Source of the DNA: Candidatus Doudnabacteria bacterium
GTDB taxonomy: Bacteria; Patescibacteriota; Doudnabacteria; UBA920
Direction of reading: 5' to 3'
NCBI GenBank assembly: GCA_963788395.1
Contig: CAWBGV010000020.1
Location: 69,195-133,194 of the forward strand
DNA length: 64,000 bases
This document shows positions 9-60,019 of this stretch, piece by piece. The notes below the pieces were generated by a model that saw only the letters and a list, made by a program, of their open reading frames with translations, ran no database searches and was not told the origin of the DNA. Numbering within the stretch: position 1 is the first letter of the stretch; each line of letters starts with the position of its first letter. The position numbers and the translations under genes are program-made.

Positions 9-301
9 CGCGGGATAGAGCAATTGGCAGCTCGCAAGGCTCGAGTATTGGGCTGCGTCGGAAGAAATTCTGACGTGATATCTTGTCAAATTCGGGGAAG
101 CCTGTAAAATGGTAATCCCGAGCCAAGCTCTGCTTAAAGTAAGCAGGGAAGGTGTAGAGACTTAATGGCAAGCACCTAAGGCCTAAAAGCTATGGTGAAG
201 AGAAAGTCCAGACCACAAATCTGTCATTTGACAGAGCAATGAAAGTTGTAGTGGTATGCATAACCTTGAGGTTCCCGGTTCGAGTCCGGGTCCCGCAACC
301 A
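9..301 (+). tRNA. tRNA-Met(CAU), initiator-type, split by a group I intron (exons 9-41 and 259-301)
   Basis: The exons join into a 76-nt cloverleaf with anticodon loop CUCAUAA. The C1xA72 mismatch (CGCGGGA/TCCCGCA) and A11:U24 are initiator hallmarks. T-arm is GGTTCGAGTCC and CCA is encoded. Confidence 0.85.
42..258 (+). ncRNA. Group I (IC3-like) intron in the anticodon loop, no ORF
   Basis: Inserted after U33. P1 can form with a U41-G51 wobble at the 5' splice site, and the intron ends in G258. P2 is 56-75, an 8-bp stem with a GAAA loop. Core strings GTCAAATTCGGGGAAGCC, AATCCCGAGCCAAGC, GGAAGGTGTAGAGACTTAATGGCAAGCACCTAAGGC and GCTATGG match the Azoarcus/Anabaena tRNA introns as I remember them. 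Confidence 0.8.
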
Positions 302-701: not shown

Positions 702-778
702 GCCGGTGTAGCTCAGCTGGTTAGAGCGTGGGACTCATAAGCCCAAGGTCACTGGTTCGATCCCAGTCACCGGCACCA
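702..778 (+). tRNA. tRNA-Met(CAU), elongator or tRNA-Ile2 (lysidine); cannot be distinguished from sequence
   Basis: 77-nt cloverleaf GCCGGTG...CACCGGC-A-CCA with anticodon loop CUCAUAA. G1-C72 is paired, so it is not an initiator. CCA is encoded. Confidence 0.85.
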
Positions 779-4425: not shown

Positions 4426-7395
4426 ATGGAAAAGCTTCGCCAGCAGCAAAAACAAATTCAACTCTCCGATCCTTTACTGGAAGGGTTGAACAAAGCCCAG
4501 ACCGAGGCCGTTAACCATACCTACGGCCCGCTGTTAATTGTGGCCGGAGCGGGAACCGGAAAAACTACCGTGATTACCCGCCGGATTGCTCGGCTGGTCG
4601 GTCAAAAATTAGCCAAACTCGATGAAATTGCGGCCTTAACTTTTACCGAAAAAGCTGCCGGCGAGATGCAGGAACGCTTAGACTTACTCCTGCCCATGGG
4701 TTATGTAGATACCTGGATTTGTACTTTTCATGGATTTTGCGAACGAATTTTAAAAACTCACGGCCTGGATATTGGCCTGCCGGGAGACTTTTCGATTTTA
4801 AGCGATACCCAACAGTGGATTTTTATTTACAAACATCTCGGCCAGTTTCAGCTGGATTATTACCGCCCCATGGGCAACCCCGCTAAATTTATTAGCGCCT
4901 TAATTAGCCATTTTAGCCGCTTAAAAGATGAGGTAATTAGCCCCGCGGACTATTTAAAGTACGCCGAAGAGTTGAAATTGTCTTTGGATAGTGCTGAGGG
5001 AATAAAGAAAAGCGAAGAGGGGGCAACCGTGCTGGATGTTGCCGAAATCTCCCGAATCGAAGAACTCTCCAATGCCTACCATACCTATCAAAAACTCTTG
5101 CTCAATAACAATTTTCTGGACTTTGGCGATCTTATTAATTATACTTTAGAACTTTTTAAAAAACGTCCCAAGCTTTTAAACTATTATCAGGAAAAGTTTA
5201 AATTTTTAATGGTGGATGAGTTTCAGGATACCAATTTTGCCCAGTATGAATTGGTGAAGCTGTTGTCGGGAAATCAAAACAATCTAACAGTAGTTGGCGA
5301 TGACGACCAATCTATTTATAAATTTCGCGGCGCCAGCGTTTCCAATATCTTAAAATTTAAAGAAGATTACCCCAACTTTAAACAAATCACTTTAGTCGAA
5401 AATTATCGGAGCTCCCAAAATATTTTAGACTTAGCCTATCGGTTTATCCAGGCTAACAATCCCGACCGCCTGGAAATCAAATTGGCTATTAACAAGCGTC
5501 TTAAAGCCCAGGCCGGCTCGCCCGCAGGGGTGATCGAGGTTGTTGAAGCCGAAGATCTCAACGGCGAGCTCAACGCCGTCACCAAAAAAATTTGCCAACT
5601 GCGCGAAGCCGAAGACTGTTCCTGGAATGATTTTGCGATTTTACTTCGGGCCAACTCTGCCGCCGAAGCGCTTTTGCCGTGCCTGCAGGCCGCGGAAATT
5701 CCTTACACCTTCGTTGCGAACCGGGGACTATACAAAAAACCAATTATCATAGACCTCATTTCTTACCTGCGACTACTGGACAATTGGCACGATTCCAACA
5801 GCCTGTATAAAGTCCTGACTCTGCAAAAATTCAGTTTTGACCATAATGATTTGGCTGCTTTACTGCGTTATGGCCACAAAAAAACTTTATCGCTTTACGA
5901 AACTCTATCCGAAGCCCCGCATGTGCCCGGAATTTCGGCAGCCAGTCTGCAAAAAATTTCTCTTTTAACCGCCACGCTCCAGCGCCACACCCAAGCCAAT
6001 AAACAGCACCACGCGGTGGAAATTTTAGTTCAAATTATTAAAGATTTGGGGATTGAAGAAAAAGTTAAAGAACAAACCGCCCAGGCGGCGGAAAACCGCG
6101 AATTAATTGAACAGTTCTATAAAAAAATTGAGGCTTTTGAGCAGCAAAATGAAGATAAAAGCCTGCATAATTTTTTAGCGAATCTGGATTTAGAGTTCCA
6201 AGCGGGCAATGATGGCGAAATTAAATTCAATCCGGATTTAGGGCCGGAAAGCCTGAAAGTCTTAACTATCCACGGCTCCAAAGGTTTGGAATTTAAGTAC
6301 GTTTTTCTGATCAACATGGTTGATCAGCGTTTTCCCACACGGGAAAAATCCGACCCGATTGAAATCCCCGAGCCCTTGGTTAAAGATATATTGCCGGAAG
6401 GGGATTACCACCTTCAGGAAGAGCGCCGCTTATTTTATGTAGCTGTAACCCGGGCCAAGAGCCATTTGTATTTTAGCTGGGCCAAAGATTACGGCGGAGC
6501 TCGAGCCAAGAAACCTTCGGCGTTTTTGGTCGAAGCCGAGCTTGTGCCGAGCGAAAAAATCAATAAAGCCACGGGCCGGGTTGTCTTTGACCGCCAAACA
6601 AAGCCCGGCGGGAAAATTATTTACGACCCGCCGACCCAATTTTCCTATTCCCAGTTAAATGACTTTGAAAATTGTCCGCTAAAATACAAATACCAGCACT
6701 ATCTTAAGTTGCCGGTGGAAGGTTCGTGCCATTTAAGTTTTGGCCAAACTATACACAAGGTGTTTGAGGAATATTTAAAACTATATAAGACCAACCTGGA
6801 CCTGCCGCAGCAGGATCTGTTCGGGGGTAAGCCCGAAGTTACTCTGCCGGCATTTAAATTTCTCGAGCAGCTCTACCAAAAGTGCTGGGTCGATGACTGG
6901 TATGAAGACAAAGAACAAAAACAACAGTACCGCGTGTTGGGCAAAAAACTTCTGACGACTTTTTACGATTCGGTAAGCCAACAGCCGTTTCATCCTAAAT
7001 ACATAGAGCAATTTTTTAAGTTGCGGCTAAAAAGTTATACGTTTGTGGGCAAAATTGACCGGGCCGACGCGCGGGCAAGCGGGATTGCGATTTTTGATTA
7101 CAAAACCGGCAAACAGCCCAAAAAAAATGACAAGAAAGATTTAGATCAACTCCACATTTACCAGTGGGCCGCCCAGGAATTTTTAAAGGAAACCGTGGTT
7201 GGGTTAACGTATTGGTTCTTGCAAGATAATGCTTTTGTGGAAGAGCCGGTAGCTGCTGCCGATAAAATCAGCGCGCTAAAGGAAAATTTGTTGACTAGAA
7301 TAGAAAGAATTGTCTATGTAACCCAGTATGACCTGTTTAAGGAAGAGCACAAAAAAAGCCGAGACCACAATTGCGAATTCGAACATCTTGAGTAG
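4426..7395 (+). CDS. UvrD/PcrA-type SF1 helicase fused to a C-terminal PD-(D/E)XK (RecB/AddB-like) nuclease
   Basis: Walker A GAGTGKT, then DEFQDTN, VGDDDQSIYKFRGA, VENYRS and TIHGSKGLEF. The C-terminal part has CPLKYKYQHYL…GKIDRAD…IFDYKTGK. Confidence 0.85.
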   Translation: MEKLRQQQKQIQLSDPLLEGLNKAQTEAVNHTYGPLLIVAGAGTGKTTVITRRIARLVGQKLAKLDEIAALTFTEKAAGEMQERLDLLLPMGYVDTWICTFHGFCERILKTHGLDIGLPGDFSILSDTQQWIFIYKHLGQFQLDYYRPMGNPAKFISALISHFSRLKDEVISPADYLKYAEELKLSLDSAEGIKKSEEGATVLDVAEISRIEELSNAYHTYQKLLLNNNFLDFGDLINYTLELFKKRPKLLNYYQEKFKFLMVDEFQDTNFAQYELVKLLSGNQNNLTVVGDDDQSIYKFRGASVSNILKFKEDYPNFKQITLVENYRSSQNILDLAYRFIQANNPDRLEIKLAINKRLKAQAGSPAGVIEVVEAEDLNGELNAVTKKICQLREAEDCSWNDFAILLRANSAAEALLPCLQAAEIPYTFVANRGLYKKPIIIDLISYLRLLDNWHDSNSLYKVLTLQKFSFDHNDLAALLRYGHKKTLSLYETLSEAPHVPGISAASLQKISLLTATLQRHTQANKQHHAVEILVQIIKDLGIEEKVKEQTAQAAENRELIEQFYKKIEAFEQQNEDKSLHNFLANLDLEFQAGNDGEIKFNPDLGPESLKVLTIHGSKGLEFKYVFLINMVDQRFPTREKSDPIEIPEPLVKDILPEGDYHLQEERRLFYVAVTRAKSHLYFSWAKDYGGARAKKPSAFLVEAELVPSEKINKATGRVVFDRQTKPGGKIIYDPPTQFSYSQLNDFENCPLKYKYQHYLKLPVEGSCHLSFGQTIHKVFEEYLKLYKTNLDLPQQDLFGGKPEVTLPAFKFLEQLYQKCWVDDWYEDKEQKQQYRVLGKKLLTTFYDSVSQQPFHPKYIEQFFKLRLKSYTFVGKIDRADARASGIAIFDYKTGKQPKKNDKKDLDQLHIYQWAAQEFLKETVVGLTYWFLQDNAFVEEPVAAADKISALKENLLTRIERIVYVTQYDLFKEEHKKSRDHNCEFEHLE

Positions 7396-7968: not shown

Positions 7969-9495
7969 ATGGCAGACCAAATTCCAATGGACCCGTCAGC
8001 TGCTACTAATCCTGCTGAGACTGAGCAGTACTTGTTTTTTAATGTCATGCCGCGCGCCAAGAACAGTTCCGCGGTAGTCAGCCCAACCATAAAAATCAGC
8101 AGTGCCGCGCCCAAAACTTCGGCGACAAACACTTATTGGCTTAAATACCGTTGGTATGCAATCGGTTTAGTGGTTGTTGTTATTGCCGGATTAATTGGCT
8201 ATTATTTTTACAATAAATATACCGAAAGCCTTGGCCAAAAGGCGGAGACGGCTCTGGTAGTTAGCCATCCGCATCCTATCCCTGCCGCAGCGGCCACGCC
8301 AACCGCAGTCGCTTCCAGTACTATAGCAGGTTTTACCACTCCCCAAAGTTGGCGTAATAATTTTTTTAATGCTTGCACCGATATTACCGTTTGTGGTGAC
8401 GAAGCCGACCCGGACCATGACGGCTTGAGCAACCTCCAGGAATACAAGCTCGGCACCGATCCGAACCACAACGACTCCGACGGCGACGGAATTTCCGACG
8501 GTGATAAAGTCTTGGTTTTCGGTATGGACCCGTTAGCTGCCCACAACGGTACAGACCCCAGTTATACTGACGCTGACTATTTAAAAGGCGGCTACGATTT
8601 TAAAACTGGCCAGTTACTGCCTGCAGCGGAACTTTCAGCTTTGACTCAAAGAATGAATCAGTATTGTTTGCATGAACCAACCGTAACTACTCTGGCCGGC
8701 GTTTTAACTTCACTCTATCATTTTAACTGTCAGCCCGGCCAAGCCCCGGCGGCCCAAGCTTCTTCTACGCCGGTCACTACAGCCACCAGCACTCCAACAT
8801 CCACACCGGTTTCATTGCCCAGCACCACGCCGACCTCGGTAGCCACCAGCACCAGCATGCTGGATATTGACCAAAGTCCTTCGGCCAAAGAAAACCGCGA
8901 CGCCCAGCGAACAACGACCTTGCAAAACATCGCGGTCGGTTTAGTGAAATACTTCCAGCAAAATAAATCGTACCCCGACACAACCAATTTTGCCGATATG
9001 GCTTCAACCATAAAACCCTATAACTTAGTAGCTACTAACCCGGTAGACCCTATCAATCAAGGACAATTTGTTTATAGCTATACCCCCAGCCCTAACAATT
9101 CTGATTTCGTTTTAAGCTACTTTAGCGAAACCGAAAATCAGCTTATTCAAATTCATGCCGCCGACGCCCAAAAAACCGCGGCTCAGCAGCAGGCGGATAA
9201 TTACGACGAGCAGCGCAAAACAGACTTGGCCAATATTCAAACCGCGCTCTTACTTTACTCCAACGATAACATCAGCACCGGACAAGATTATGTCTTCCCC
9301 ACAGAAGATAAGTACCAATCATCACTCGTACCTAAATACTTAGCTCAGATGCCCAAAGATCCGGAAACCGGACAAGATTACGATTACCAAGTTTCGCAAA
9401 CATTCGACGCTTTCACGGTTAAAGCCGCTCTCGATGACGCGCCTGCCGGGTATTCGGGGTATTTATGCAACGAAGAGGAGTGCAGGTATTATTGA
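7969..9495 (+). CDS. Membrane-anchored surface protein with Ca-binding TSP3-like repeats and two pilin-like globular modules
   Basis: TM helix (YAIGLVVVVIAGLIGYYF). DPDHDGLSNLQEY…DSDGDGISDGD repeats. An S/T/P-rich linker. Two segments resemble post-helix pilin sequence (RDAQRTTTLQNIAVGLVKYF…YPD and EQRKTDLANIQTALLLYSNDN). Confidence 0.55.
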   Translation: MADQIPMDPSAATNPAETEQYLFFNVMPRAKNSSAVVSPTIKISSAAPKTSATNTYWLKYRWYAIGLVVVVIAGLIGYYFYNKYTESLGQKAETALVVSHPHPIPAAAATPTAVASSTIAGFTTPQSWRNNFFNACTDITVCGDEADPDHDGLSNLQEYKLGTDPNHNDSDGDGISDGDKVLVFGMDPLAAHNGTDPSYTDADYLKGGYDFKTGQLLPAAELSALTQRMNQYCLHEPTVTTLAGVLTSLYHFNCQPGQAPAAQASSTPVTTATSTPTSTPVSLPSTTPTSVATSTSMLDIDQSPSAKENRDAQRTTTLQNIAVGLVKYFQQNKSYPDTTNFADMASTIKPYNLVATNPVDPINQGQFVYSYTPSPNNSDFVLSYFSETENQLIQIHAADAQKTAAQQQADNYDEQRKTDLANIQTALLLYSNDNISTGQDYVFPTEDKYQSSLVPKYLAQMPKDPETGQDYDYQVSQTFDAFTVKAALDDAPAGYSGYLCNEEECRYY

Positions 9496-37832: not shown

Positions 37833-37869
37833 AACCGCTTTGACCATTCTGGCTCGAAGCGGTTTTTTT
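37833..37869 (+). terminator. Intrinsic terminator
   Basis: AACCGCTT…AAGCGGTT followed by TTTTT. Confidence 0.65.
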
Positions 37870-40800
37870 ATGTTATATCCACCATCGAAATTTCCGGAAG
37901 GGAGCGCAGCGATTTTAGCAGTTCGTTATTCACGCGCACGCTCGACTGAGTTTTAATGGTTTTAGCTGCCGGACCGCTCCCCACCGAAAGATAGACCTGG
38001 GCGTTGCCTGGAAAACTATGAAGGATATCTTTAATCGTATTCAGCGCGCTCATATTGGCCAAGGACTGCATGTGCAAAATTACACTCTTATTTTTTTCCA
38101 TTTCCGAAAGGGCCATTGTGTACAGTTCATCGTTTGGTAATTCTTTAATTTCCTCGGCAATCAACTTAAACTCCTCGTCTTTATCAGAAAGCCGGCCGGA
38201 GACTTGGACAATTTTGTCTGCTGCCAAATAGGGGAGAGCCGCTTCCATAGCCTTAGGAAATACCAAAACTTCAACACTGCCAGTCAAATCTTGCAGCGTA
38301 AAAAAAGCCATTGGGTCGTTTTTTTTGGTCATCGTCCGCTTGAGCCGCGAAATTATTCCGCCCATAATGACATGAGCGCCCAATTGATCCAATTTTAAAT
38401 CTTTCACGCAGGTAAATCCCTGCAGCACCTGGCGGTAATTATCGAGCGGATGAGCTGATACGTAAAAGCCTAAAATTTCTTTTTCCCACAGCAATTTTTC
38501 ATCTTTGGTCGACGGTGCAACATCGCGCAATTTTAACTTTCCGACTTGCAGCGACTTTCCAAACAAAGAATTCTGGCCGCTGTTTTCATCTTTAAAATGC
38601 TCGCGGGTAAAATCCAAAATCTCTTCCGTATTGGCCAACAGTTTGCCCCGCTCACCATAGGCGTCCAGGGCGCCCGCTTTCACCAAAGCTTCCCAAGATT
38701 TTTTATTAAGATTTTTCGTATGGGCACGAATGGAGAAAATCTTCTATAGATGAAAAGGGGGAAGATGTTTTTTTCACATCTGCCACCTTCCCCCTAAGCT
38801 CTATTATCTTGGCCACTACATCGCTTCCTAAATTTTTAATGGCATTCAATCCAAACCGGATGGTCTTCTCATCTACAACCGTAAAGTCGCCGAGCGATTC
38901 GTTAATGTCGGGCGGCAAAACTTGGATGCCCAAATTCCCGCATTCTTCCACGGCGGCGTAAATTTTATCCTCGTCGCCGCTTTCCGCGGTCATCACCGCC
39001 GCCATAAATTCCACCGGATAATTAGCCTTCATAAAGGCAGTCTGATAGCTTACCACCGCGTAAGACGCGGAATGAGATTTATTAAACCCGTAGGCCGCGA
39101 ACGGCTCGATCCAGGCCCAGACCTCCTGAGCTTTTTCGTAGCCCCAGCCGGAGGTCTTCATGCAACCGTCGATAAATTTCACCTTCTGTTTAGCCATTTC
39201 TTCCGGGATCTTTTTGCCCACAGCTTTGCGGAATTTATCCACCTCTTCCCAGGTATAACCGGCCAAGTCATGGGCAATCGTCAACAAATCGTCCTGATAA
39301 ACCAACACTCCATAAGTCCGGCTTAAAATCCGCTCCAGCGCGGGATCTAAATATTTAATCAATTTAGGATTATTCTTGCGGCTAATATAATCAGGAATAA
39401 ACTGCATTGGTCCCGGACGATACAGCGCGATCATGGCCATAACATCAAAGATCGTGTTCGGCTGCAACTCTTTCAAGTACCGAGTCATACCCGAAGATCC
39501 CATTTGGAACACGCCGAACGTCAGCCCGCGCGACAGCAATTCAAAAGTTTTAGGATCGGGATGGGGGAGATTGTAAATATCTATGGTTACCCCATGGCGG
39601 TGTTCGGCAATTTTTACCGCCCGTTCTAAAATAGATAGATTACGGATCCCCAAAAGGTCCATTTTGACCACGCCGATGGCTTTACTGTTGGCGTTGACGT
39701 CCAAAGCGTACATATCGTATTGGGTAATAATCCGCTCGCCGTCCGGTTCTTTTTGCAGGGGCATATAAGTAGTCAGCGGCTCCGGCGTAATAACAATTCC
39801 GGCCGCGTGTACCGAAGCATGGCGGGCGCCACCTTCTAATTTTTTCGCAATCGTTAAGATCCGATTAGTATCGGGATCGCGGGTATAAATTTCTTTTAGC
39901 TCAGGATTTAACTCTAAAGCTTTATCCAGCGTCATGTGGAATCCCTGTTTACCAATCGGGATCATCTTGGCGATCTGATCGCACTTACTGTAAGGCACGG
40001 CCAGGGCGCGGCCCACATCTCGGACGGCAGCTCGGGCCATCATTGTCCCAAACGTAATAATTTGGGCGACTTTGTCCTTGCCGTAGCGGGAGGTAATGTA
40101 TTCAATGGCCTCATCCCGCCGGTCATCGGCGATATCTAGGTCAATATCGGGAGGCGTGGGACGATGCATGGTTAAAAACCGTTCAAACGGCAACTCATAA
40201 TACAGCGGATCCACGTTGGTAATCCCCAAAATTTTTCCCACAATACTGCCGGCCGCGCTGCCGCGAGTGTTGGTGATCGCGCCAATATTATGCGCGCCCT
40301 GGACTAAATCGGCCACCATTAAAAAGTAGGTGTCAAAACCCTTTTTGCAAATAATATTTAATTCATAATCTATCCGCTCTAAAATTTCCTTGGGGACAAC
40401 GCCGTCTTTCCCGTACAGCGGTACCGCCTTTTCGTGGACCAGATTTTTAAGATAGTCTTGGGAATTCAAGCCGGACGGAATTTCCACACGCGGAAAATAC
40501 CGCTGGTCGAGCGCGATTTCCAGCTGGCAGCGTTCAGCAATTTTTTGAGTATTAGCTACTGCTTCCGGCAAATCGCTAAACGACTCGGCCATTTGCTCGG
40601 GAGACTTAAGCGATAGATCAAACCCCCGCAAATCCATGCGATCCGGATCCTGGACGGTTTTGCCGGTGCCAATACACAGCAAAACGTCCTGAGCTTCTTT
40701 ATCTTCGGGGTAGATATAGTGGCAATCGGCCGTGGCCACAATTGGCAAATGGTTTTTTTTGGCCAGTTCGATTAATTTTTGATTTAACGCCTGCTCGCGT

Positions 40801-41354
40801 TCTTGCCACTCCGCGGCCTGGGCGTTCCGCTGGAGCTCTATAAATAGACGGTCAGGACCAAAGATTGCCAGATATTTTTCCAAAACTTTTTGGGCTTCGG
40901 CGGCCGGTTTGCCGACCGCGGCTTTGGCGATTTCTCCCCGCTGGCAGCCAGAAAGACAAATTAATCCCGAGCCATATTGCTGCAAAACTTCTAAGTCGAT
41001 TCTTGGTTTATAATAAAACCCTTCCAGATGAGCAATCGTCGTCAGCTGCATCAAATTCTGGTAGCCTTCCAGGTTTTCTGCCAATAAGGTTAAATGAAAA
41101 TAATCGGCGTCAACTTTACCGTCCTTGTCGCGCAGGCTTCGCGGCGCGACATAGGCTTCGAGCCCGATAATTGGTCGAATGCCGCTTTCCAGGCATCTAC
41201 TATAAAACTCAATCGTGCCGTACATAACCCCATGGTCGGTAAGTGCCAGGGTTTGCATGCCCAATTCTTTAACACGTTCAACCAGCGGATCTATTTTCGA
41301 TAGTCCGTCCAACAAAGAAAAATGGCTGTGGCAATGAAGATGGGTAAATTGCAT
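37868..41354 (-). CDS. dnaE: DNA polymerase III alpha subunit DnaE (frameshift near 38695)
   Basis: PHP domain (FTHLHCHSHFSLLDG), polymerase core, and OB-fold C-terminal part in ORF 37868-38686. Confidence 0.92.
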
Positions 41355-50630: not shown

Positions 50631-52107
50631 TAATACAACTTAAAGGGATTTTTCCTTGTTTAGAATGGGCGGCGGCTATCGCACGCTCGTTGTGAATGTG
50701 GGAGAATTCAATTTTCTGATTTTTTAAATAGGGGTGCGAGCCGAAATTTTTTGGGCAAAGTATTTTTTGGGGTGCAGTTCGGCGTATTGCGTGATTTCGC
50801 CCAATGTTTTTGCGTCTTTCACCCATTTTTGAGCGGTTCGAGCCAAGCGACAGACCTCTGTCGAAAATCGGCTATTTTCTCCTCCAACGACTTCTTGCAG
50901 GAGAGAAGATTTGCCTTCTCGCAGAGGTATGTTTCTGCTCAATATCTTGGTCAAAATAGCGATAAGAAGGCGTTGGAGTTTTGTCCTCAATAGCCAAAAC
51001 TTCATCTTTCATCGCTTGGCACGCGGCTAGTGGATATATTGGGCGTCTGCTTTCTCATCCTTGTCCGCCATAGTTTTATAGCTCCGCCCCATCGTGTGGC
51101 AGGACGAATTCTTTGAGGGTATCTGAAAGTGGCTGACCAGCTCCTCGCCCCTGATATAGGGCTGGGAGCAAACCGTATTCTTTTTGGTACAGCGATAATA
51201 ATATAATGGTGGGTTGCCGTTTACTTGCCGCTTTAGCTTATTCTCGGCGGTTATGCCCGGCCACATTCGCCACACTTAAAGAGCCCGCACAAAGGCTGTG
51301 GCTCGTTCTTGGGCTTCTATGGGGCTTGCCTCGGTCTTTAAGCACAGCTCTGCACTTGATCATAGAGCTTTTTCGTGATAATGGGCTTGTGTTGCCCTTG
51401 ATATATTCCCCGTTATAGCGGAAGTGGCCGTAGTAAAAAGGATTGGAGAGAATAACCGCCACTCGATCTCGCGTTATGGATTTTCCGCCTCTGTGTAAAG
51501 ATCTCGTTCTTCGCAAAAAGCGACGATATATCTTCCAAACGGGAATTGCCTTGAACATAAAGTTCATAGGCCGTCTTTACGATTTTTGCCCGCTTGCGAT
51601 CAACGACTATGCTCTTTATCCGGCTGTCATTCAGATAGCCAGTGGGCGCTTGGGTAGGACACTCCCCGCGCCGGACTTTCTCGTAAAGGCCACGTTTGGT
51701 GTTCGCACTTAAGTCCAAAATAAACTGATTAGCCATACCGAGTTCAACGGCCATAACAAGGACGTTATCGGTAGGATAAAGCTCCGGTCGTGGGTTTGGA
51801 TGTGCTGGATAACACCCTTTTGCAAGAACCAGCTAATCTGCCCGCCATCTATGGGGTTGCGGGCGAGGCGATCCAGTTTCCAGCAAACAATGCCTTGCGC
51901 GTCGCCCCGTTCTATGCTTAAAAGCATTTCGTTGAACACGGGACGGCCGGGACGTTTGGCCGACTGCTTCTCGATGAACTCTTGGACTATATTAAGTCCT
52001 TCCTGTTTGGCCAATGCCCGCAAAACAGCAAGCTGGTCTTCAATAGACCGGACTTGCTTGTCTTCAACGTCTGTGGATTTGCGGGCGTAGAGGAAGTAGT
52101 TAATCAT
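50631..52107 (-). CDS. Large serine recombinase (resolvase + recombinase + zinc-ribbon domains), at least 4 frameshifts
   Basis: YARKSTDVEDKQVRSIEDQ…LDRLARN (catalytic Ser domain, 51709-52107). Recombinase domain (51413-51754). ILSNPFYYGHFRYNGEY and CGECGRAITAE…YYYRCTKK zinc ribbon (51027-51567). C-terminal fragments extend to the tRNA. Confidence 0.75.
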
Positions 52108-52150
52108 AGGGGTAGAATGATAATTCTATATAGAACAATATTAAAATATT

Positions 52151-52159
52151 TGCTACAAT
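52151..52159 (+). promoter_or_regulatory. Extended -10 promoter (TGCTACAAT) for the XRE/R-M operon
   Basis: TGCTACAAT lies 26 nt upstream of the ATG at 52185. Confidence 0.4.
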
Positions 52160-52184
52160 GAAGCAAGTTCGTAATCCATAATCT

Positions 52185-52391
52185 ATGATCGATATTTCGG
52201 CTAAATTTGGCAAAAAGGTGAAAGAAATACGCCTTAAAAAAGGCTTGTCGCAAGCAGGCCTTGCGAAAATTTTAGGCGTTCACCCGACATATATCAGCGG
52301 CATTGAGCGTGGCGCTAGAAACATGGCGTTAAAAAATATTGAACGGGTTGCAAAAGCCCTCGGCGTGCCTATTGAGGATCTAATTAAATAA
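52185..52391 (+). CDS. XRE-family HTH protein (controller-like, directly upstream of hsdR)
   Basis: GKKVKEIRLKKGLSQAGLAKILGVHPTYISGIERGARN; 68 aa. The stop is 3 nt before the hsdR ATG. Confidence 0.8.
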   Translation: MIDISAKFGKKVKEIRLKKGLSQAGLAKILGVHPTYISGIERGARNMALKNIERVAKALGVPIEDLIK

Positions 52392-52394
52392 ATT

Positions 52395-54860
52395 ATGCAA
52401 AAAGAGGCGAAAGCAAGAATCAAAATAAATAGTCTGCTCCAAGAATCTGGCTGGAGATTTTTTGATGATAATTCAGGGACAAAAAATATTGAAGTTGAGG
52501 GAGATGTAAAAATGGAAAGTCTTGGAGATAATTTTGAGCACGTCAAAAAAGGTTTTATTGATTACCTGCTATTGGATACAAAAGGCTTCCCTTTGGCCGT
52601 TCTTGAAGCAAAGTCACAGAGCAAAGATCCTTTGGATGGAAAATACCAGGCGGAAAATTATGCTAAGGCCAAACGGTGCCGCTTTGTAATTTTAAGCAAT
52701 GGCGATGTTCATTACTTTTGGGATCTGAACCAAAGCGCGGAAAAAATCATTCTAAAATTGCCCACCCAAAAAGACTTAACTAAACTCCTTCAAGCTTTGT
52801 CAGCAATGCCGTTGGGAGGTATAGAAGTTAAAAATGACTGGATTGTTCAAAGTCAGGGTGCGGTTGCCAATGAAGACAAAAAATATTTGCGGGATTACCA
52901 GTTAGACGCAATAAAAACAATTTCCAATAATTTTGATAATGGGGGTAGGCGTTTTCTTTTGGAAATGGCAACTGGAACTGGTAAAACTCTTCTAGCCGCG
53001 GCGCTTATCAAACTTTTTCTAAAAACCGGCAATGCTTCCAGAATCTTATTTTTAGTTGACCGGATTGAGCTGGCTGATCAGGCAAACCAAAATATAAGCT
53101 CTTACCTAAAAGAATATAATATTGGAATTTTTAAAGAGAATAAGGAACAGGCTTTGCAGAATCAGGTTGTCATTGCCACCATTCAAAGCCTGTCGTATAA
53201 CCAAAACTACCTAAAATTTTTTTCTCAATTTGATTTCGACCTCCTTATTTCAGACGAAGCCCACCGCAGTATTTATGGAAATAATCGGGCGATTTTTGAA
53301 TACTTTGAAGCCGCTAAAGTCGGCCTAACCGCAACGCCAAAGATTACCTCAAAGGCATAGACGAGAAAAAACTGGTTGACACCGACCCAGGAAACTGGAA
53401 AAAAGAATTTTGCAGGACACCTATAAAACTTTCGGCTGTGAATCCGGCGAGCCCACGTTCCGTTTTGATTTAAAAGAGGCAGTATCACATAAGCCCCCTT
53501 ATTTAGTAAATCCGGTTATTTTTGATAAACGAACCGAAAAGACGGATCAAATGCTTTCCGAGCAGGGTTGGACAGACGCTTTCGTGGATGAAATTACCGG
53601 CCAGCAGATAGAGGAAACTTTTAAAATCCGACAGTTAGAACGGAAGGTATTTTCTGAAAGCCTAAACCGATTATTGGTGGAAGAGTTTTTGAATACGGCA
53701 AAGAAGGATCCCGTAACCAAAGAAGTAGGGAAAACTATAATTTATTGTATTTCTCAAAATCATGCTTCCAAAATCCAACGTTTACTAAATGAAGCGGCCG
53801 ATAAACTATGGCCTCAAAAATATTCTGGGCTCAATGGGGTTTTCGCGCGCCAGATTACCAGCAATGTCGTGGGCAGCCAAGATTTAACTAAAAAATTCAG
53901 GAATAACCAATTAGGTAATACCAGAGTGGCCGTAACAGTCAATATGATGACCACCGGATATGATTGCACAGATCTTTTGAACGTAGTGCTAATGAAGCCA
54001 ATTTTTTCTGTAAGCGATTTTGTGCAAATAAAAGGCCGCGGCACGCGCCCACATAATTTTAAAAATGAGTTGACCGCCCAGACAATTGAAAAAGACAATT
54101 TTTATTTAATTGATTACTTTGCGGTATGTGAATATTTTGAAGAAAAATACGACTACAAAGAGCCGCTCCGTATACAGATTAATCAAAAAGAAATTTTAAC
54201 CAAAGGAGAGTCTGTTAGCAAAGAGTCTGCCGATTTGGATTATACAACGCCTGAAACTGATTCAGCGGCTAGCGGTACACAAAGTGAACTGCCAATTGCA
54301 GTAGCGCACGGCAACTATATTTATATAGGCACGGATTTTCTGGTTCGGGATAACAAAATAGAGATAGGCGAAGACTGTATGAAAGTAGACCGGGAAGCCT
54401 ATCGGAATCGTTTTGAAGAGTCCGTCAAAGAGCTCATGTCTTCCGACGCGGATTTTCTGGATGCCTTAAAACACGATGACGTGGATACAACGGAAAAAAT
54501 TGCCCAGGAAAAATTATTGGAAAAACCAAAATACTATTTTTCTTTGGAATCTTTACGCAAGGCTTACCAGTCCAGCAATGGTCTGGCGGATTTTCTAAAA
54601 AAGGCCGCCGGGTTAATAGAAAAATTGCCGGATAAATATGACCGCTTAAATCAGGGGTTTGAGGAGCTAAAATTGGTATAAATCCTCCATACCATACGAG
54701 AAACTTAACTATTACGAAAATATTTATTCCTGTTATTTAACTAGCCCGGAATATCGTTCCGCCGTTCGAGCAGGGTAAATACACGGTGCTTGACAACCAG
54801 ACGCTCGGCGGTAGTGTTCCTATCGGCAGAGTCAATAAAGAGGAAATAGAAAATATCTAA
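52395..54860 (+). CDS. hsdR: Type I restriction enzyme R subunit (HsdR-like; at least 3 frameshifts)
   Basis: N-terminal PD-(D/E)XK (IDYLLLD…LAVLEAKS). Helicase motifs LEMATGTGKT and SDEAHRS. LTATPK… continues at 53410-54681, and a short C-terminal tail runs to 54860. Confidence 0.75.
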
Positions 54861-54887
54861 ACTTTATAAGAGAATCCAGTATCCCAT

Positions 54888-57388
54888 ATGTCAACTAGAC
54901 CGCAGGAATTAAAAAAAATTATAGACGACCTCCGCCAGATTATTGTCGGCAAGGTAGCTATGCCAACGGATCAAATTGAGCAGATTACCCTATTTCTGTT
55001 TTTAAAACAGTTGTCCAAAAAACATGATGACCTTGTAAGAATTGGTTCCAAAGAATTGATTTTCACCGGTCAGTGGGAACGTTATCATTTTGACGTTTTA
55101 ATGCGTCATAGCGGCGAGGAATTAGTCAAAGAGTGCCGCGAGGCTGTGGAGTCGCTTTATAAAAATCCGCACATTGAAGCAACGGTCAAGAAAAGTTTTT
55201 GAGCGCTCTTATTTAAAAATTCTTGAGCCAAAAGTCTTGAGTTCGTTTTTGGCCTATTTGAATGACAAATTTTCCGACGGCCTGGATTTGGGAGATTTTT
55301 ATGAGAGCTTACTCCCTATTTTAGGCACGCAAAATGAGTTGGGACAATTCCGTACCCCGCGCCATATCATAGATTTTATAGTCAGAGTTGTTGACCCCAA
55401 AAACGGAGAAAAAATTGCCGATCCCGCTTGTGGAACGGAGGGTTTTGGTGGCGGCATTTAACTATCTTAAAGAAAAATACACGGACGAAAAAGGCAGACT
55501 AAAGTTAAATCCAGAACAAATAAAAACACTTTACAACGAAACAATTTTTGGCTGGGATAGTGAGCCGTTAATGGTTAAATTTTCTCTGGCTAACCTCTAT
55601 CTTCATGGCTTGAAAGTTCCTAATGTTTCTGAAAACGACACGCTTCTCAATGAAAATCTTTGGCAACATTCTTTTGATATTATCGTTGCCAATCCGCCAT
55701 TTATTACACCGAAAGGCGGAGCACGCCGACATTCCCGCTTTGCTATCACTTCCAATAAAACCGAAGTGTTATTTTGCGAATGGATGGTTCATCACCTCAA
55801 TTTCAATGGGCGGATGGGCGTAATTGTGCCGGAAGGAATTATTTTTGACGGAAGCAAGGGACATCAAGCAATCAGAAAGTTATTTTTGGATAATGGCCTT
55901 TGGTGCGTAGTGTCTTTGCCGTCTCAAGTTTTTCAACCATATTCCGGAGTAAAAACTAGCATTGTATTTTTGGATAAAACCCTGAAACCAGAAAATATAC
56001 TTTTCTATAAAAGTAAAAATCACGGATTTTCTCTCAACACCAATCCCGCGCCAGTTGATCAAAACGATTTACTGGAGGCGATAACTTTTATCAAAAAGTA
56101 TAAGGAACTTTTACAAGATAACAAGCAAAAAGTATTTGAAAATTCAAAATACTACACCGTAGCGAAAACAAAGATTTTAGAGGATAAACTTTTTAGCTTA
56201 AATAGTGGTACCTATTTAGAAAAGGTAAAAATAGGCAATCAAAAATGGCCGATTGTGGAACTGGGTGAGGTTTGCGAAGTCTCGGCCGGAAATTCTGCAC
56301 CGCAAGACAAGAAATTATTTGAAAACGGTAAATATCCATTTTTTAGAACATCCGATGTTGGAGCTGTTCACCTATCTGATAACTTACATGATGTACGCGA
56401 TTGGTTAAATTCCGAAGGTATTGTTAATTTAAAATTATTTAAAAAAGGCACAATTTTATTTCCTAAAAGTGGCGCTTCTACATTCCTGAACCACAGAGTC
56501 GTTATGGGGTTTGATGGCTATGTGTCGAGCCATTTGGCGACAATAACTCCGAAGAAAGGGCTTACCATTAGTAAATATATTTATTACTCATTAGTTGGCA
56601 TTGATGCAAAAACATTAACACCTGATCAAGCTTATCCGTCTTTAAAAACGAGTGAGATTGCTAAAATCAAAATCCCTCTCCCGCATCTTGAAGTCCAAGA
56701 GCAAATTGTCGCCGAGCTGGAAAACTATCAAAAAGTCATTGATGGGGCGCAGGCCGTAGTTGAAAACTATAAACCCACGATTGAAGCTAACAAAGAATCG
56801 GAAATTGTTAATTTTGGCAACGACGAAGTTGTTGAGATTATTGATGGAGATAGAGGCGAAAATTATCCGCCCAAAAGCGAATTCAAAACTTCCGGCTATT
56901 GTGTTTTTCTAAATACAAAAAATGTAACGCAAACTGGTTTTGTTTTCGATGATGTTGATTTTATTTCAAAAGAGAGAGATGAAAAACTACGAAAAGGGAA
57001 ACTACATAAAAACGATGTTGTTCTCACAACGAGAGGAACTGTTGGAAATAGTGCCTTAAACGATAATTCTGTTGAATACGATCAGATTAGGCTCAATTCC
57101 GGAATGGTTATTTTGAGACCCAACATCAATAAAATTGATCCATCATTTCTTTGGAATGTTGTCAGGAGTAAATCTGTTCAAGATCAATTTCTCAAGATAA
57201 AATCTGGCTCGGCACAGCCACAATTACCAATCAGAAACTTAGTAACGATTGAATTTCCTTTGCCTTCGTTGGAAGCCCAAAAGCAAATTGTGGCAAAAAT
57301 TGAGGAAGAACAGAAAATCGTTGAATCCAACAAAAAACTGATTGGAATAATGGAGCAAAAAATCGCCAATGTTTTAAGAGAAATATAA
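54888..57388 (+). CDS. Type I R-M methyltransferase fused to a two-TRD specificity module (HsdM-HsdS fusion; 2 frameshifts in the M part)
   Basis: HsdM N-terminal domain (54888-55202). FRTPRHII…DPACGT (motif I). IVANPPF (motif IV). Then, within the single uninterrupted ORF 55388-57388, two HsdS-type target-recognition domains (WPIVELGEVCEVSAGNSAPQ… and …VVEIIDGDRGENYPPK…TTRGTVGNSA) separated by conserved helices (LEVQEQIVAELE and LEAQKQIVAKIEEE). Confidence 0.7.
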
Positions 57389-57394
57389 ATATGT

Positions 57395-58262
57395 ATGAGG
57401 CATTTAATTAACAATGACGGCACACCTTTTGATACATCTGAACTACAAACTTTACGCGATGAGTTAGACGCTTTAGATAATGACGGGCGTGCTGAATACC
57501 GAGATCGAAAATGCTTCGGACATCGCTCGACACAAAGCCGTAAAGTTTTTGATAGTTTCCGGTCCCGGAACCGGGAAAAGCTATTTGTTTTTGAATCGGA
57601 TTAACTATTGGTATAAACAAGACGCTCAAGCGAAAGTATTGGTAACAAGTTTTGTTAGAAAGTTAGTAGCGGATTTGCAAAATGATATTGACGGCGACGA
57701 GCAATTATCTGATGAGCAGAAAAGTAGCATAACTGCGTCAACCTTACATAAATTTGCGAGGAGTATCGTTGAGCAAAATCATGGTACGGCGGGTTGGCGA
57801 TTTCAGCCACACTTTCGGATAATAGGTCAATTCTGGAAAGATGTTGTATGGGGAGACACAATCGCGTTTTATTCTCTACTTGATAGAGATGACTATGCTT
57901 GGAAAAAGTTTGAGGAGCAGTTATATAATGCCGAGTATGAACAATCCGAAGAATGGACTAAATTAAAAGAACTTTATTTTAAGTTATGCCAATTTTATAA
58001 TGCAGCTGGTTTTGCCGATCTCATTTTGCGTGCTAAAGACGCACTTGTAGAAAACCCCCAACTTAACGAGAGCAACTATTTTATTATTGACGAGTATCAG
58101 GATTTTAATTCTGCGGAAGACGCACTGATAAATCAGTTAGTGAACGATCCAAAGGGTTTGCTCGTTGTGGGTGATGATGAACAGGTACTGATTATTATGA
58201 TGACGGAGATATTGGAGGGGAAAGTTTGGCTGATTATGACAGAACGACCGGGCAGTGGGTAA
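57395..58262 (+). pseudogene. Truncated UvrD-like SF1 helicase (N-terminal half only; also frameshifted)
   Basis: Walker A SGPGTGKS, then IIDEYQDFN, then VVGDDEQ. After that the ORF diverges and stops, and no helicase C-terminal domains follow. Confidence 0.6.
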
Positions 58263-58288
58263 TACAACCAAAAATTATTGGAGCTAAT

Positions 58289-58771
58289 TTACATTAGCCC
58301 TTTGTCCCTTAAGCTTGTGTGAGAATCAGCAGTTACAATCACGTGGTCCAAAACTTCTATGCCGAGAAGCTTTCCGGCATCTTTTAGCCGCTTAGTAACC
58401 GCAAGGTCTTCGTCAGACGGCTCTAAACTGCCACTTGGATGATTGTGAACAACAATTACAGAGCAGCAGTTTTTTAGAATAGCCGTCCTAAAGGTTTCTC
58501 TAGGATGGATTAAGCTAGCGTTTAACGTGCCAATGCTTATACTCTCTTTCCCGGTAATGTGATTTTGGGTATCCAGGAAAAAGACGCAGAAGTGTTCTTT
58601 TTTAGCTTTCCTAAAACTTTTGCATTTTTCAGCAACTTGAGCAGGATTATATACACCTCCCGGCATAGGTTTGACTGTTAAGTTACTGCTAACATATTGA
58701 CTGGCTTTATCCTTAGCCTCGGTGTCGCTCTCTGCCGTAAACTGGTAATTGATATTTATTTGATATTCCAT
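58289..58771 (-). CDS. RadC-like JAB/MPN-domain protein
   Basis: JAMM motif VIVVHNHPSGSLEPSDEDLAVTKRL…LDHVIV. 160 aa with no HhH N-terminal domain. Confidence 0.8.
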   Translation of the reverse strand: MEYQININYQFTAESDTEAKDKASQYVSSNLTVKPMPGGVYNPAQVAEKCKSFRKAKKEHFCVFFLDTQNHITGKESISIGTLNASLIHPRETFRTAILKNCCSVIVVHNHPSGSLEPSDEDLAVTKRLKDAGKLLGIEVLDHVIVTADSHTSLRDKGLM

Positions 58772-59108
58772 AAAGTTCCTTTTTGCTTACTGATTATGGC
58801 AAGCAAAAAACTCTGGAACGTTTTGGCGGTCAAGGGTGTAGCATAGCGGCGATTTATGCCCAGGCGTGAAACGGAATAAAGAAGTCCGCCCCTTTACGGC
58901 TAAAAACCCGCCTTGGGCAAGGTCAGGTTGAGGTGGCCAAGGTTAGCAGTTTTGGACAAAGTCAGTTCGCACCTTGTTGTACGGGCACTCCAGAATCAAA
59001 TTCTGTTTAACCTCCCGCTTAAGTGGGAGGTTTTTGTATAAAAAATGGGCGGCAAACTGATGGCTTGCTACCCAGAGATGTTTTTGATTAGTTGAATTCA
59101 GACTTAGT

Positions 59109-59751
59109 TTACTCTGAGCCTGGAACTCTTGCCAATCCGTGCTCAAAAGCATATCTGACAAGCCCCGCTTTCGAGTGGATATCGAGCTTGTGCATAATGT
59201 TGGTTTGGTGAGAGTCTATCGTCTTTGTGCTCAAACCCAGCCTATCTGCAACCTCTTGTGTATTATTCCCATTGGCTATCTCCCGAACTACTTGCCGTTC
59301 CCGAGGAGTTAAAAGTTCATCCGACTCAGGAGGCTCACCAGCAGCTAAGAAGCGTATTTTCCTTACCCTAACTCCGACATCATAGTACCGTGCGCCCGAT
59401 AGCGCAGCGGTAATGCTCATCATAAAAAATTGCGGGGTTACGTTGGTTGAGAGCACGCATTATATTCCTCAGGTTGTCTAATGACGCATCTTCAAAGTCA
59501 GCACTAGATGGGTTAGTCAACAAAATAATTGGCACCCTCAGTTGCCTTTGGAGCTTACCAACTTGCCTTCGCCAAAAGCGACCGTATTCATTCAAGTAGA
59601 TAATTAAGACATCGGTCGTTTTACCTATGATCGTTTTAGGGTCACTCTCCAGGCATTCCGAGACCACTTCCAGTTCCGGGTTAGTTCGTATAAAGGCTTT
59701 TAATCCTTCCATTAAAAGCGCACATTGCACCCACAAGCTAATCTTAACCAT
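59109..59751 (-). CDS. LuxR/NarL-type regulator with a degenerate receiver domain (frameshift near 59400)
   Basis: C-terminal GerE HTH (TPRERQVVREIANGNNTQEVADRLGLSTKTIDSHQTNIMHKL). In the N-terminal REC-like fold, the acidic pocket and phospho-acceptor positions read QC and Y (ISLWVQCALL…DVLIIYLNE). Confidence 0.65.
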
Positions 59752-59898
59752 AATCCCTCTTTTCCATTCGAATTTACGCTAAAAGCGTACTTTACTTTAG
59801 TCACAAAAAGCTTGATTGTCAAGGCCATATACTGTGTATCTGTCGATCAGTTCTTAAAATTTCTCAAATTGATGTGTCTTGAGTTTTTTTTTGATTTC

Positions 59899-59907
59899 TG
59901 GTAAACT
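59899..59907 (+). promoter_or_regulatory. Extended -10 promoter (TGGTAAACT) for tRNA-Tyr
   Basis: TGGTAAACT lies 25 nt upstream of the tRNA 5' end. Confidence 0.4.
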
Positions 59908-59931
59908 ATGAAAGAAGTTTGCAAATTATTT

Positions 59932-60019
59932 GGGCAGGTAGCGAAGCGGTCAAACGCGACTGACTGTAAATCAGTTGGCTTTATGCCTTCATAGGTTCGA
60001 ATCCTATCCTGCCCACCAC
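59932..60019 (+). tRNA. tRNA-Tyr(GUA), class II (long variable arm)
   Basis: GGGCAGG…CCTGCCC-A-CCA, anticodon arm ACTGA-CTGTAAA-TCAGT, variable arm TGGCTTTATGCCTTCA. Confidence 0.88.

Follow-up and report, generated by a model that had tools for sequence, protein, structure and literature searches.

A probable IC3-type group I intron in an initiator-type tRNA gene of a Saccharibacteria-like bacterium

Which tRNA is encoded by a gene whose two halves lie 217 nt apart, and can the RNA between them plausibly remove itself? We addressed this for positions 9–301 of the window, by which we mean the whole stretch of 64 kb that was analysed and which begins 8 nt upstream of the tRNA. The locus is very probably the initiator tRNA-fMet(CAU) gene of a Saccharibacteria-like bacterium, interrupted by a 217-nt group I intron of the IC3 fMet.2Ug type that carries no ORF. 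The gene and a neighbouring tRNA comprise the following features.

9–41, plus strand: exon 1 of tRNA-fMet, CGCGGGAUAGAGCAAUUGGCAGCUCGCAAGGCU, from ARAGORN on the in-silico spliced sequence
42–258, plus strand: group I (IC3-type) intron, 217 nt, without an ORF, predicted from RF00028, covariation and the MFE fold
259–301, plus strand: exon 2 of tRNA-fMet, CAUAACCUUGAGGUUCCCGGUUCGAGUCCGGGUCCCGCAACCA, with the CCA encoded (299–301)
702–778, plus strand: elongator-type tRNA(CAU), from ARAGORN and Rfam, with G1–C72 and C11–G24; not an initiator

Exon 1 comprises the acceptor 5′ strand, the D-arm, the 5′ strand of the anticodon stem, C32 and U33, and its last nucleotide, U41, serves as U(−1) at the 5′ splice site. 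Exon 2 supplies the anticodon CAU (259–261), A37, A38, the 3′ strand of the anticodon stem, the variable loop, the T-arm, the acceptor 3′ strand and A73. Removing 42–258 in silico leaves a 76-nt cloverleaf, called tRNA-Met(cat) by ARAGORN, with a 7-nt anticodon loop, CUCAUAA, in which the CAU anticodon is present after splicing. In the spliced tRNA (CGCGGGA…UCCCGCA-A-CCA), 1×72 is unpaired as a C1×A72 mismatch, G2:C71, C3:G70 and A73 are present, and the D-stem GAGC/GCUC gives A11:U24, where elongator tRNAs have Y11:R24. Initiator identity and formylation are known to be determined by C1×A72, A11:U24, G2:C71, C3:G70 and A73, and the status of the last three in formylation is established from E. 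coli. The run of three G:C pairs that is a hallmark of initiators was sought at 29–31:39–41 of the anticodon stem, and two of the three were found, the stem being A29:U41, G30:C40 and G31:C39; because the third G:C pair is absent, we call the tRNA initiator-type and not canonical. Since at least 120 intronless tRNAs of the same type and many CPR-labelled loci have the same A29:U41 pair, it is, on this comparison, a lineage variant and not a defect.

The intron is inserted between U33 and C34, preceded by U41 and ending in G258. The register 41|42 … 258|259 alone meets both the U(−1) and the omega-G rules, and a one-base slide of the splice sites (C42 = C259) gives an identical product; the predicted ligated junction is AAGGCU|CAUAACC, or in longer form …GCAAGGCU|CAUAACCUUG…. 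Rfam family RF00028 matches at 23–233 (61.9 bits, gathering cutoff 50, E 2.8e-13, model positions 1–253), and across the 64 kb Rfam finds no second group I intron. The ends of this match are imprecise, as it stops ahead of P9b and the omega-G. The initial annotation had described two tRNA halves 217 nt apart with CUCAUAA, C1×A72 and A11:U24, and had proposed a group I intron at U33/C34 of an initiator-type tRNA(CAU), with a U–G pair in P1 at the splice site, a GAAA-capped P2 and a terminal G. All of these lie where it had placed them (U41·G51, 64–67 and G258 for the last three), and the RF00028 score and the tRNA-Met(cat) call on the spliced sequence bear the proposal out. Two other candidates were set aside: the boundaries and P1 of the RF00028 match itself (27–35 of the D-arm with 48–56 of the guide), by which the U·G would fall at U32 and the tRNA would be destroyed, and the one promoter-like match, at 83–110, which is no better than chance and falls within the core of the intron.

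The predicted helices P1–P9b were drawn by hand from the IC3 architecture and are listed here with the changes seen in alignment A1, a MAFFT alignment of 43 non-redundant ORF-less introns with 8 nt of each exon.

38–54, plus strand: P1, with G38–U41 pairing to the guide G51–U54, C42–A44 to U48–G50, and L1 as GUA (45–47)
55–76, plus strand: P2 hairpin, 9 bp, GAAA tetraloop at 64–67, compensatory changes at 9/9 pairs, present in the MFE fold
82–88 with 166–172, plus strand: P3, four pairs with double changes
91–97 with 116–122, plus strand: P4, in which pair 55:76 (intron numbering) is GC in 21, UA in 17 and AU in 5
100–102 with 111–113, plus strand: P5, hand-drawn, within the P2–P6 stretch that the MFE fold reproduces
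123–152, plus strand: P6/P6a, P6a with double changes at 8/8 pairs
157–162 (GAGACU, A158 bulged) with 205–209 (AGUCC), plus strand: P7 pseudoknot, the guanosine-binding helix, enclosing P3′ and P8
173–197, plus strand: P8, CCUAAG (175–180) with UAUGG (191–195), double changes at 4/4 pairs of proximal P8
212–258, plus strand: P9 three-way junction, P9 being 212–216 with 251–255, followed by A256, U257 and omega-G258
220–235, plus strand: P9a hairpin, double changes at 6/6 pairs
236–249, plus strand: P9b hairpin, GAAA loop at 241–244, double changes at 5/5 pairs

Within 82–172, P3 encloses P4, P5, P6/P6a and the 5′ strand of P7. The CCUAAG/UAUGG strands of P8 match the consensus of the 11-nt GAAA-tetraloop receptor and are a candidate for that motif. 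The intron alone has an MFE of −72.6 kcal/mol (z = −5.05, with 0 of 200 shuffles as low), and its unconstrained MFE fold reproduces P2–P6, P8 and P9–P9b. On A1, the hand-drawn structure pairs 89.5% of cells, against 32–43% when the partners are slid by 1–3 columns, and compensatory double changes occur in 46 of the 71 pairs; none of 500 shuffles attains the observed value. Covariation extends to every pair of P2, P6a, P9a and P9b, and is seen in P3, P4 and P8 too. The U41·G51 wobble that marks the 5′ splice site is UG in 43/43 aligned introns (A1 columns 8/76), and the two pairs flanking it are likewise present in 43/43; none of the five P7 pairs varies among the 43 sequences, and P7 is therefore uninformative on covariation. 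Omega-G258, which precedes CAUAACC, is also invariant in A1, partly by construction since the search pattern required a G. The window intron is intact at all columns that do not vary among the 43 introns, including the U·G, P7 and J8/7. P10 is weak, at about 2 bp. The guide, GGGCUGC, can alternatively form about 7–8 bp with the 3′ strand of the D-arm (27–34), which is the P1 chosen by Rfam, so a competing fold is possible.

Splicing activity is predicted, given an anatomy that is intact and the chemistry established for group I introns. The end of exon 1, GGCU, would pair with the guide GGCU (51–54) to form P1, in which U41·G51 would mark the 5′ splice site. An exogenous guanosine bound in P7 would then attack after U41, and the terminal G258 would next occupy the guanosine site in P7. 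Attack of the U41 3′-OH after G258 would finally join …AAGGCU to CAUAACC… and restore the CUCAUAA loop. Because the mature anticodon loop needs this splicing, the interrupted gene would give an initiator tRNA only through the action of its own intron. It is reasonable that initiation would depend on splicing unless another initiator copy exists, as the initial annotation had supposed; ARAGORN and Rfam find no second initiator-type tRNA within the 64-kb window. If the gene is single copy, the organism would need RNA self-splicing in order to initiate translation, as Synechocystis does.

The host is placed by synteny. Two loci, L045 (Saccharibacteria) and L017 (Patescibacteria UBA926), have neighbouring RmuC-region genes in common with the window at 66–85% amino-acid identity, and because this synteny is with MAGs labelled Candidatus Saccharibacteria or Patescibacteria it supports a Saccharibacteria-like (CPR/Patescibacteria) host, subject to the submitters' labels and in agreement with an initial guess of a CPR genome. 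Elsewhere in the window, dnaE and hsdR are each split into two ORFs by apparent frameshifts, a hint of small assembly errors or gene decay, and a single-base error may be present within the intron sequence.

The closest locus among the matches listed is L019, from a MAG labelled uncultured Candidatus Saccharibacteria. Its exons are identical to those of the window, its downstream order of tRNA-Met(CAU), tRNA-Asp and Hsp20 is the same, and its 221-nt intron is 82% identical to the window intron by BLAST (220 nt aligned, 18% divergent); for the 191 core columns the distance is 14.7%. Seventeen structural pairs differ between the two introns, of which 11 are still paired and 12 are changed on both sides; the broken pairs are in distal P1 and P6a, where the alignment is poor, and compensatory substitutions maintain P2, P6a, P8 and P9a. 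Because of these paired and compensatory differences, the comparison indicates that the fold is under continuing selection.

An intronless counterpart was also found. When metagenomes were scanned for the junction expected after splicing, at least 120 contigs matched, and one of these, L232, carries an intronless tRNA that is identical at 76/76 positions to the predicted spliced product, which confirms the splice junction and with it the insertion point between U33 and C34. Its tRNA-fMet DNA site reads GCTCGCAAGGCTCATAACCTTGAGG. The gene order fMet–Met(CAU)–Asp of L232 is that of the window, the tRNA-Asp region is 98.9% identical, and the order fMet–Met(CAU)–Asp(GUC) is kept in L019 and L125 as well. 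Because the intronless copy stands in the same gene order, the interrupted gene can be taken as orthologous to an ordinary initiator gene, and the presence of the intron is, on the comparison of L232 with the window, polymorphic among close relatives.

These comparisons bear on a very improbable reading, in which the intron is a decayed relic that does not splice, leaving a pseudogene whose task falls to an intact initiator tRNA encoded elsewhere in the genome. The absence of a homing endonuclease ORF and the broken appearance of other window genes (dnaE and hsdR) would fit such decay. A relic would hardly be expected, however, to retain its terminal G and all the columns that are invariant in 43 introns, or to differ from L019 by substitutions that keep its helices paired. 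Exon 1 is identical to exon 1 of L019 and to the intronless tRNA of L232, and the exons as a whole are 100% identical to both although the intron has diverged by 15–18%; the locus, moreover, occupies the orthologous position of the relatives' initiator gene.

The setting is a known one. In a study that found 5,292 split tRNA genes, fMet.2Ug is one of four classical bacterial tRNA-intron settings, all of them IC3 (Williams 2020), and tRNA-fMet 33/34 has been called a well-characterised site (Nakagawa et al. 2026). Its homology with introns assigned to IC3 by others (Table S5 of Nakagawa et al. 2026; Williams 2020) makes the window intron a probable member of the classical fMet.2Ug IC3 type, which was discovered in cyanobacteria, and an ordinary addition to a family known since 1994. 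The tRNA-fMet intron of Synechocystis PCC 6803 is 655 nt long and encodes a 150-aa homing endonuclease, I-Ssp6803I. Other cyanobacterial tRNA-fMet introns are found in Scytonema and Dermocarpa (Biniszkiewicz et al. 1994; Bonocora & Shub 2001). Like the window intron, the cyanobacterial intron is hosted by an initiator tRNA, sits at U33/C34 and has the U·G and the omega-G, and the IC3 core of the window aligns end to end in A1 with the copies from Scytonema (L009), Nostoc, Symploca and Trichodesmium. The two differ in that the window intron has no ORF and an L1 of 3 nt, whereas cyanobacterial ORF-less copies have a P1 extension of roughly 40 nt; the tRNA that it interrupts carries A29:U41 and not G29:C41, and the host is CPR/Saccharibacteria-like.

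Outside the initiator tRNA, IC3 introns have their structural model in the small intron of Azoarcus sp. BH72 tRNA-Ile(CAU), which is about 205 nt long and lies in a CAU anticodon loop. Its core strings are near-identical to those of the window intron (GUCAAAUUCGG..GAA, CCGAGCCAAGC, GGUGUAGAGACU, CCUAAG/UAUGG and AGUCCAG). Unlike the window intron, it sits at 36/37 of tRNA-Ile2 and has a simple P9 instead of a three-way junction. Published introns at the same site of the same tRNA come from Bacteroidota (GCA_951812585.1 and GCF_001988955.1; tRNA-fMet 33/34, IC3, Nakagawa et al. 2026 Table S5). The window intron is 76% and 73% identical to them, respectively, over about 216 aligned columns, in line with the IC3-like core that had been recognised initially, and the Bacteroidota introns differ in their length of 303–305 nt, with a long P1/L1 extension, and in their phylum. 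[quoted passage not shown] 2026).

How widely this intron occurs was surveyed with one genome per GTDB species and the pattern AGTCCRGACYACAA-N25–55-GCATAACC, which begins at J8/7 and extends as far as the 3′ splice junction. At least 120 loci, spread over many phyla, were found. Both exons were recovered for 109 of the matches listed, and nearly all are initiator-type (C, U or A1 × A72, GAGC D-stem); the few interrupted elongator-type CAU tRNAs among the matches listed are L008, L031, L065, L078 and L082. Going by record titles, hosts among the matches listed include Cyanobacteriota, Bacteroidota, Nitrospirota, Omnitrophota, Planctomycetota, Chloroflexota, Acidobacteriota, Actinomycetota and Pseudomonadota. 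At least 29 loci have CPR/Patescibacteria labels, 22 of those 29 with initiator-type exons recovered, and the labels among the matches listed are Saccharibacteria, Paceibacterota, Parcubacteria and Nomura-, Kaiser-, Yanofsky-, Harrison-, Vogel-, Brenner- and Berkelbacteria. After L019, the nearest ribozyme cores among the matches listed belong to endonuclease-bearing introns of Saprospiraceae, Runella and Saccharibacteria, at 21–23% distance, and cores from many phyla follow at about 24–26%. Beyond the nearest relative, the similarity of the introns thus departs from host taxonomy, as expected of what would be a laterally transferred element.

The suggestion that the intron is unusual for its host does not survive this survey, given the classical setting and the at least 29 CPR-labelled MAG loci among the at least 120 found. 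No tRNA intron of IC type was reported in 95 complete Patescibacteria genomes (Nakagawa et al. 2026), a pattern into which the window intron does not fit, and the part of that paper's supplement ahead of Table S5 contains no fMet entry. A literature search for introns in Saccharibacteria initiator tRNAs found no specific report. The generalisation that Patescibacteria tRNA introns are never IC-type (Nakagawa et al. 2026) needs qualifying, because at least 29 CPR-labelled MAG loci carry an IC3 intron, some with an I-Ssp6803I-type endonuclease. The window and these loci modestly extend the known host range and are no new kind of element; the intron opens neither a new mechanism nor an old unanswered question.

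Endonuclease-bearing relatives point to the probable ancestry of the window intron. About 30 of the matches listed have introns of 560–790 nt, most encoding a sense-strand ORF of about 149 aa, and the syntenic Saccharibacteria loci L045 and L017 have introns of 649 nt and 640 nt, each with a 149-aa ORF. Because the ORF begins near intron position 25 and extends through the guide sequence and P2, it is placed in L1, a position shared between the Saccharibacteria relatives and the cyanobacterial I-Ssp6803I ORF. The L045 ORF, to which that of L017 is closely similar, matches Pfam PF11645 (PDDEXK_5) with 160 bits and scores 190 bits (E 2e-55) against PDB 2OST; we take PDB 2OST to be I-Ssp6803I, although its record says "Putative endonuclease". 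An ORF of the I-Ssp6803I PD-(D/E)XK type was sought in the window intron and is absent there, L1 being 3 nt and the 217-nt intron too short. ORF-less tRNA-fMet introns were described from the outset and the endonuclease ORF is optional, being confined to mobile copies; because of these early ORF-less members, the ORF is no defining feature of the family. PF11645 endonucleases have been reported in cyanobacterial fMet introns (Nakagawa et al. 2026). We suggest as ancestor of the intron a mobile element that homed into the anticodon-arm DNA of tRNA-fMet genes by means of an I-Ssp6803I-type PD-(D/E)XK endonuclease encoded in L1, and that the window copy lost this ORF, or never had it, and would persist as a ribozyme only.

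Retention without an endonuclease could also be read as co-option, in which guanosine-, Mg2+- or stress-dependent splicing would throttle the supply of initiator tRNA, and with it growth, in a genome without many protein regulators. We regard this as about as improbable as the relic. The speculation on such roles for Patescibacteria introns by Nakagawa et al. 2026 and the maintenance of the intron by compensatory evolution in the absence of an endonuclease lend it circumstantial support. The RNA, however, is a minimal IC3 core with no extra sensor domain, the presence/absence polymorphism and the endonuclease-bearing relatives fit a selfish homing cycle, and retention is simply explained, as an unspliceable intron would destroy the tRNA. 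In a stronger form, to which we give a marginally higher but still very small chance, this would be the sole initiator gene of a reduced Saccharibacteria genome, all protein synthesis would be gated by the ribozyme, and its dependence on guanosine and Mg2+ would serve, instead of protein regulators, as a checkpoint of growth state. More likely than such a checkpoint, IC3 introns that encode I-Ssp6803I-type endonucleases may be in active circulation between CPR bacteria and other phyla, with phage tRNA arrays possibly as carriers; if true, this would contradict the published picture of exclusively non-IC tRNA introns in Patescibacteria.

The least probable reading, and one that we consider very unlikely, is that the tRNA is not an initiator but an elongator tRNA-Met, a tRNA-Ile2(CAU) or, with a shifted splice site, a tRNA-Ser(CGA): the missing third G:C pair of the anticodon stem, the same-family introns in the five elongator-type CAU tRNAs and an ARAGORN call would allow it, but the determinants C1×A72, A11:U24, G2:C71, C3:G70 and A73 are present, A29:U41 recurs in the at least 120 intronless tRNAs of the same type, and a separate elongator-type CAU tRNA lies 400 nt downstream of the interrupted gene. 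The ARAGORN call comes from its intron mode (-i), which finds the correct exons, puts the intron at 36/37 and reports tRNA-Ser(cga). We rejected that assignment: an intron placed there would be preceded by A and have U as its last base, breaking the U(−1) and omega-G rules, and the intronless homologue in L232 reads CAT. In its default mode ARAGORN leaves the interrupted gene uncalled. Default tRNA finders thus miss the gene, and a genome of this kind would be annotated as one without an initiator tRNA.

The guide sequence of the window's intron, GGGCUGC, has two possible partners: the 5′ splice site GGCU (38–41), with which it would form P1, and the 3′ strand of the D-arm, GCAGCUC. The D-arm alternative would bring together window positions 27–35 and 48–56 in 7–8 base pairs, including a U·G pair at U32 (tRNA position U24), and it is this pairing, not the true 5′ splice site, that is taken in the Rfam alignment. 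GGGCU shows complementarity to AGCUC, a conserved strand of the initiator D-stem, so the option of pairing with the D-arm is present family-wide.

The same IC3 type of intron also splits elongator-type CAU tRNAs at 33/34, at the relatives' loci L008, L031, L065, L078, L082, L092 and L094, so the range of the element is wider than initiator genes. These hosts carry G1–C72, are either tRNA-Ile2 or tRNA-Met, and include three loci labelled Saccharibacteria or Saccharimonadales. Caution is needed with taxon counts taken from the titles of metagenome-assembled genomes, given two loci that look from their sequences like mis-binned contigs. One, L093, is labelled Acetobacteraceae and has exons and an intron length identical to those of Nostoc loci; the other, L113, is labelled Nitrospira sp. 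and has an initiator tRNA of CPR style (AGCGGGA..., with a short D-loop).

Beyond cellular genomes, a CAU tRNA is split at 33/34 by the window's type of intron on two viral contigs that have tRNA arrays:

IMGVR_UViG_3300018080_004888, 8954–9007, minus strand: locus L242, on a contig of ~79 kb with an array of 10 tRNA genes
IMGVR_UViG_3300035037_000204, 6101–6155, minus strand: locus L243, on a contig of ~85 kb with an array of 16 tRNA genes

The exons of L242 are initiator-like in appearance (CGCAGGG...GCAAGGCU / CAUAACCUUGAGG). Spread of the intron between phyla could take place by way of phage tRNA arrays.

Some introns at the 33/34 site contain ORFs on the antisense strand, unlike the ORFs of the other introns. 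In L010, L081, L090 and L103, the intron is 718–789 nt long; in L031, it is 599 nt. One ORF type, of 152–158 aa, occurs at loci labelled Yanofskybacteria, Berkelbacteria and Gammaproteobacteria, and a Pfam search with the L010 copy gave no match. The L031 ORF, within a Saccharimonadales elongator-type CAU tRNA, encodes a 123-aa Cys/His-rich protein (...CHNCHAETH...), also with no match in Pfam. Both may be uncharacterised types of homing endonuclease.

In the window, the spacer of ~400 nt that separates the initiator tRNA gene from the elongator one contains a repeated short palindromic motif, TCCGCCTCGGGCGGA or TCCGCCTCAGGCGGA. Features around these tRNA genes are:

330–344, 346–360 and 579–593: copies of the palindromic motif
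503–517: terminator-like hairpin with a T-run
887–926: perfect 20-nt inverted repeat, after tRNA-Asp

Elsewhere in the window, the DNA polymerase III alpha gene (37868–41354, minus strand) is split into ORFs of 882 aa and 272 aa, the latter carrying the OB-fold; the frame changes at the break, which lies in an A-rich run (...CGAAAAATCTTAATAAAAAATCTTGGGAAGC...). An assembly error in the homopolymer could account for the split, as could a true frameshift or a pseudogene. Positions 52001–60000, with a GC content of 0.40 compared with 0.44–0.47 in the rest, look like a defence island, decaying or horizontally acquired, and contain type I restriction–modification parts:

52395–53360 and 53410–54681: type I R subunit, split in two ORFs
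55388–57388: fused methylase/specificity protein
57480–58262: UvrD-like fragment, 260 aa
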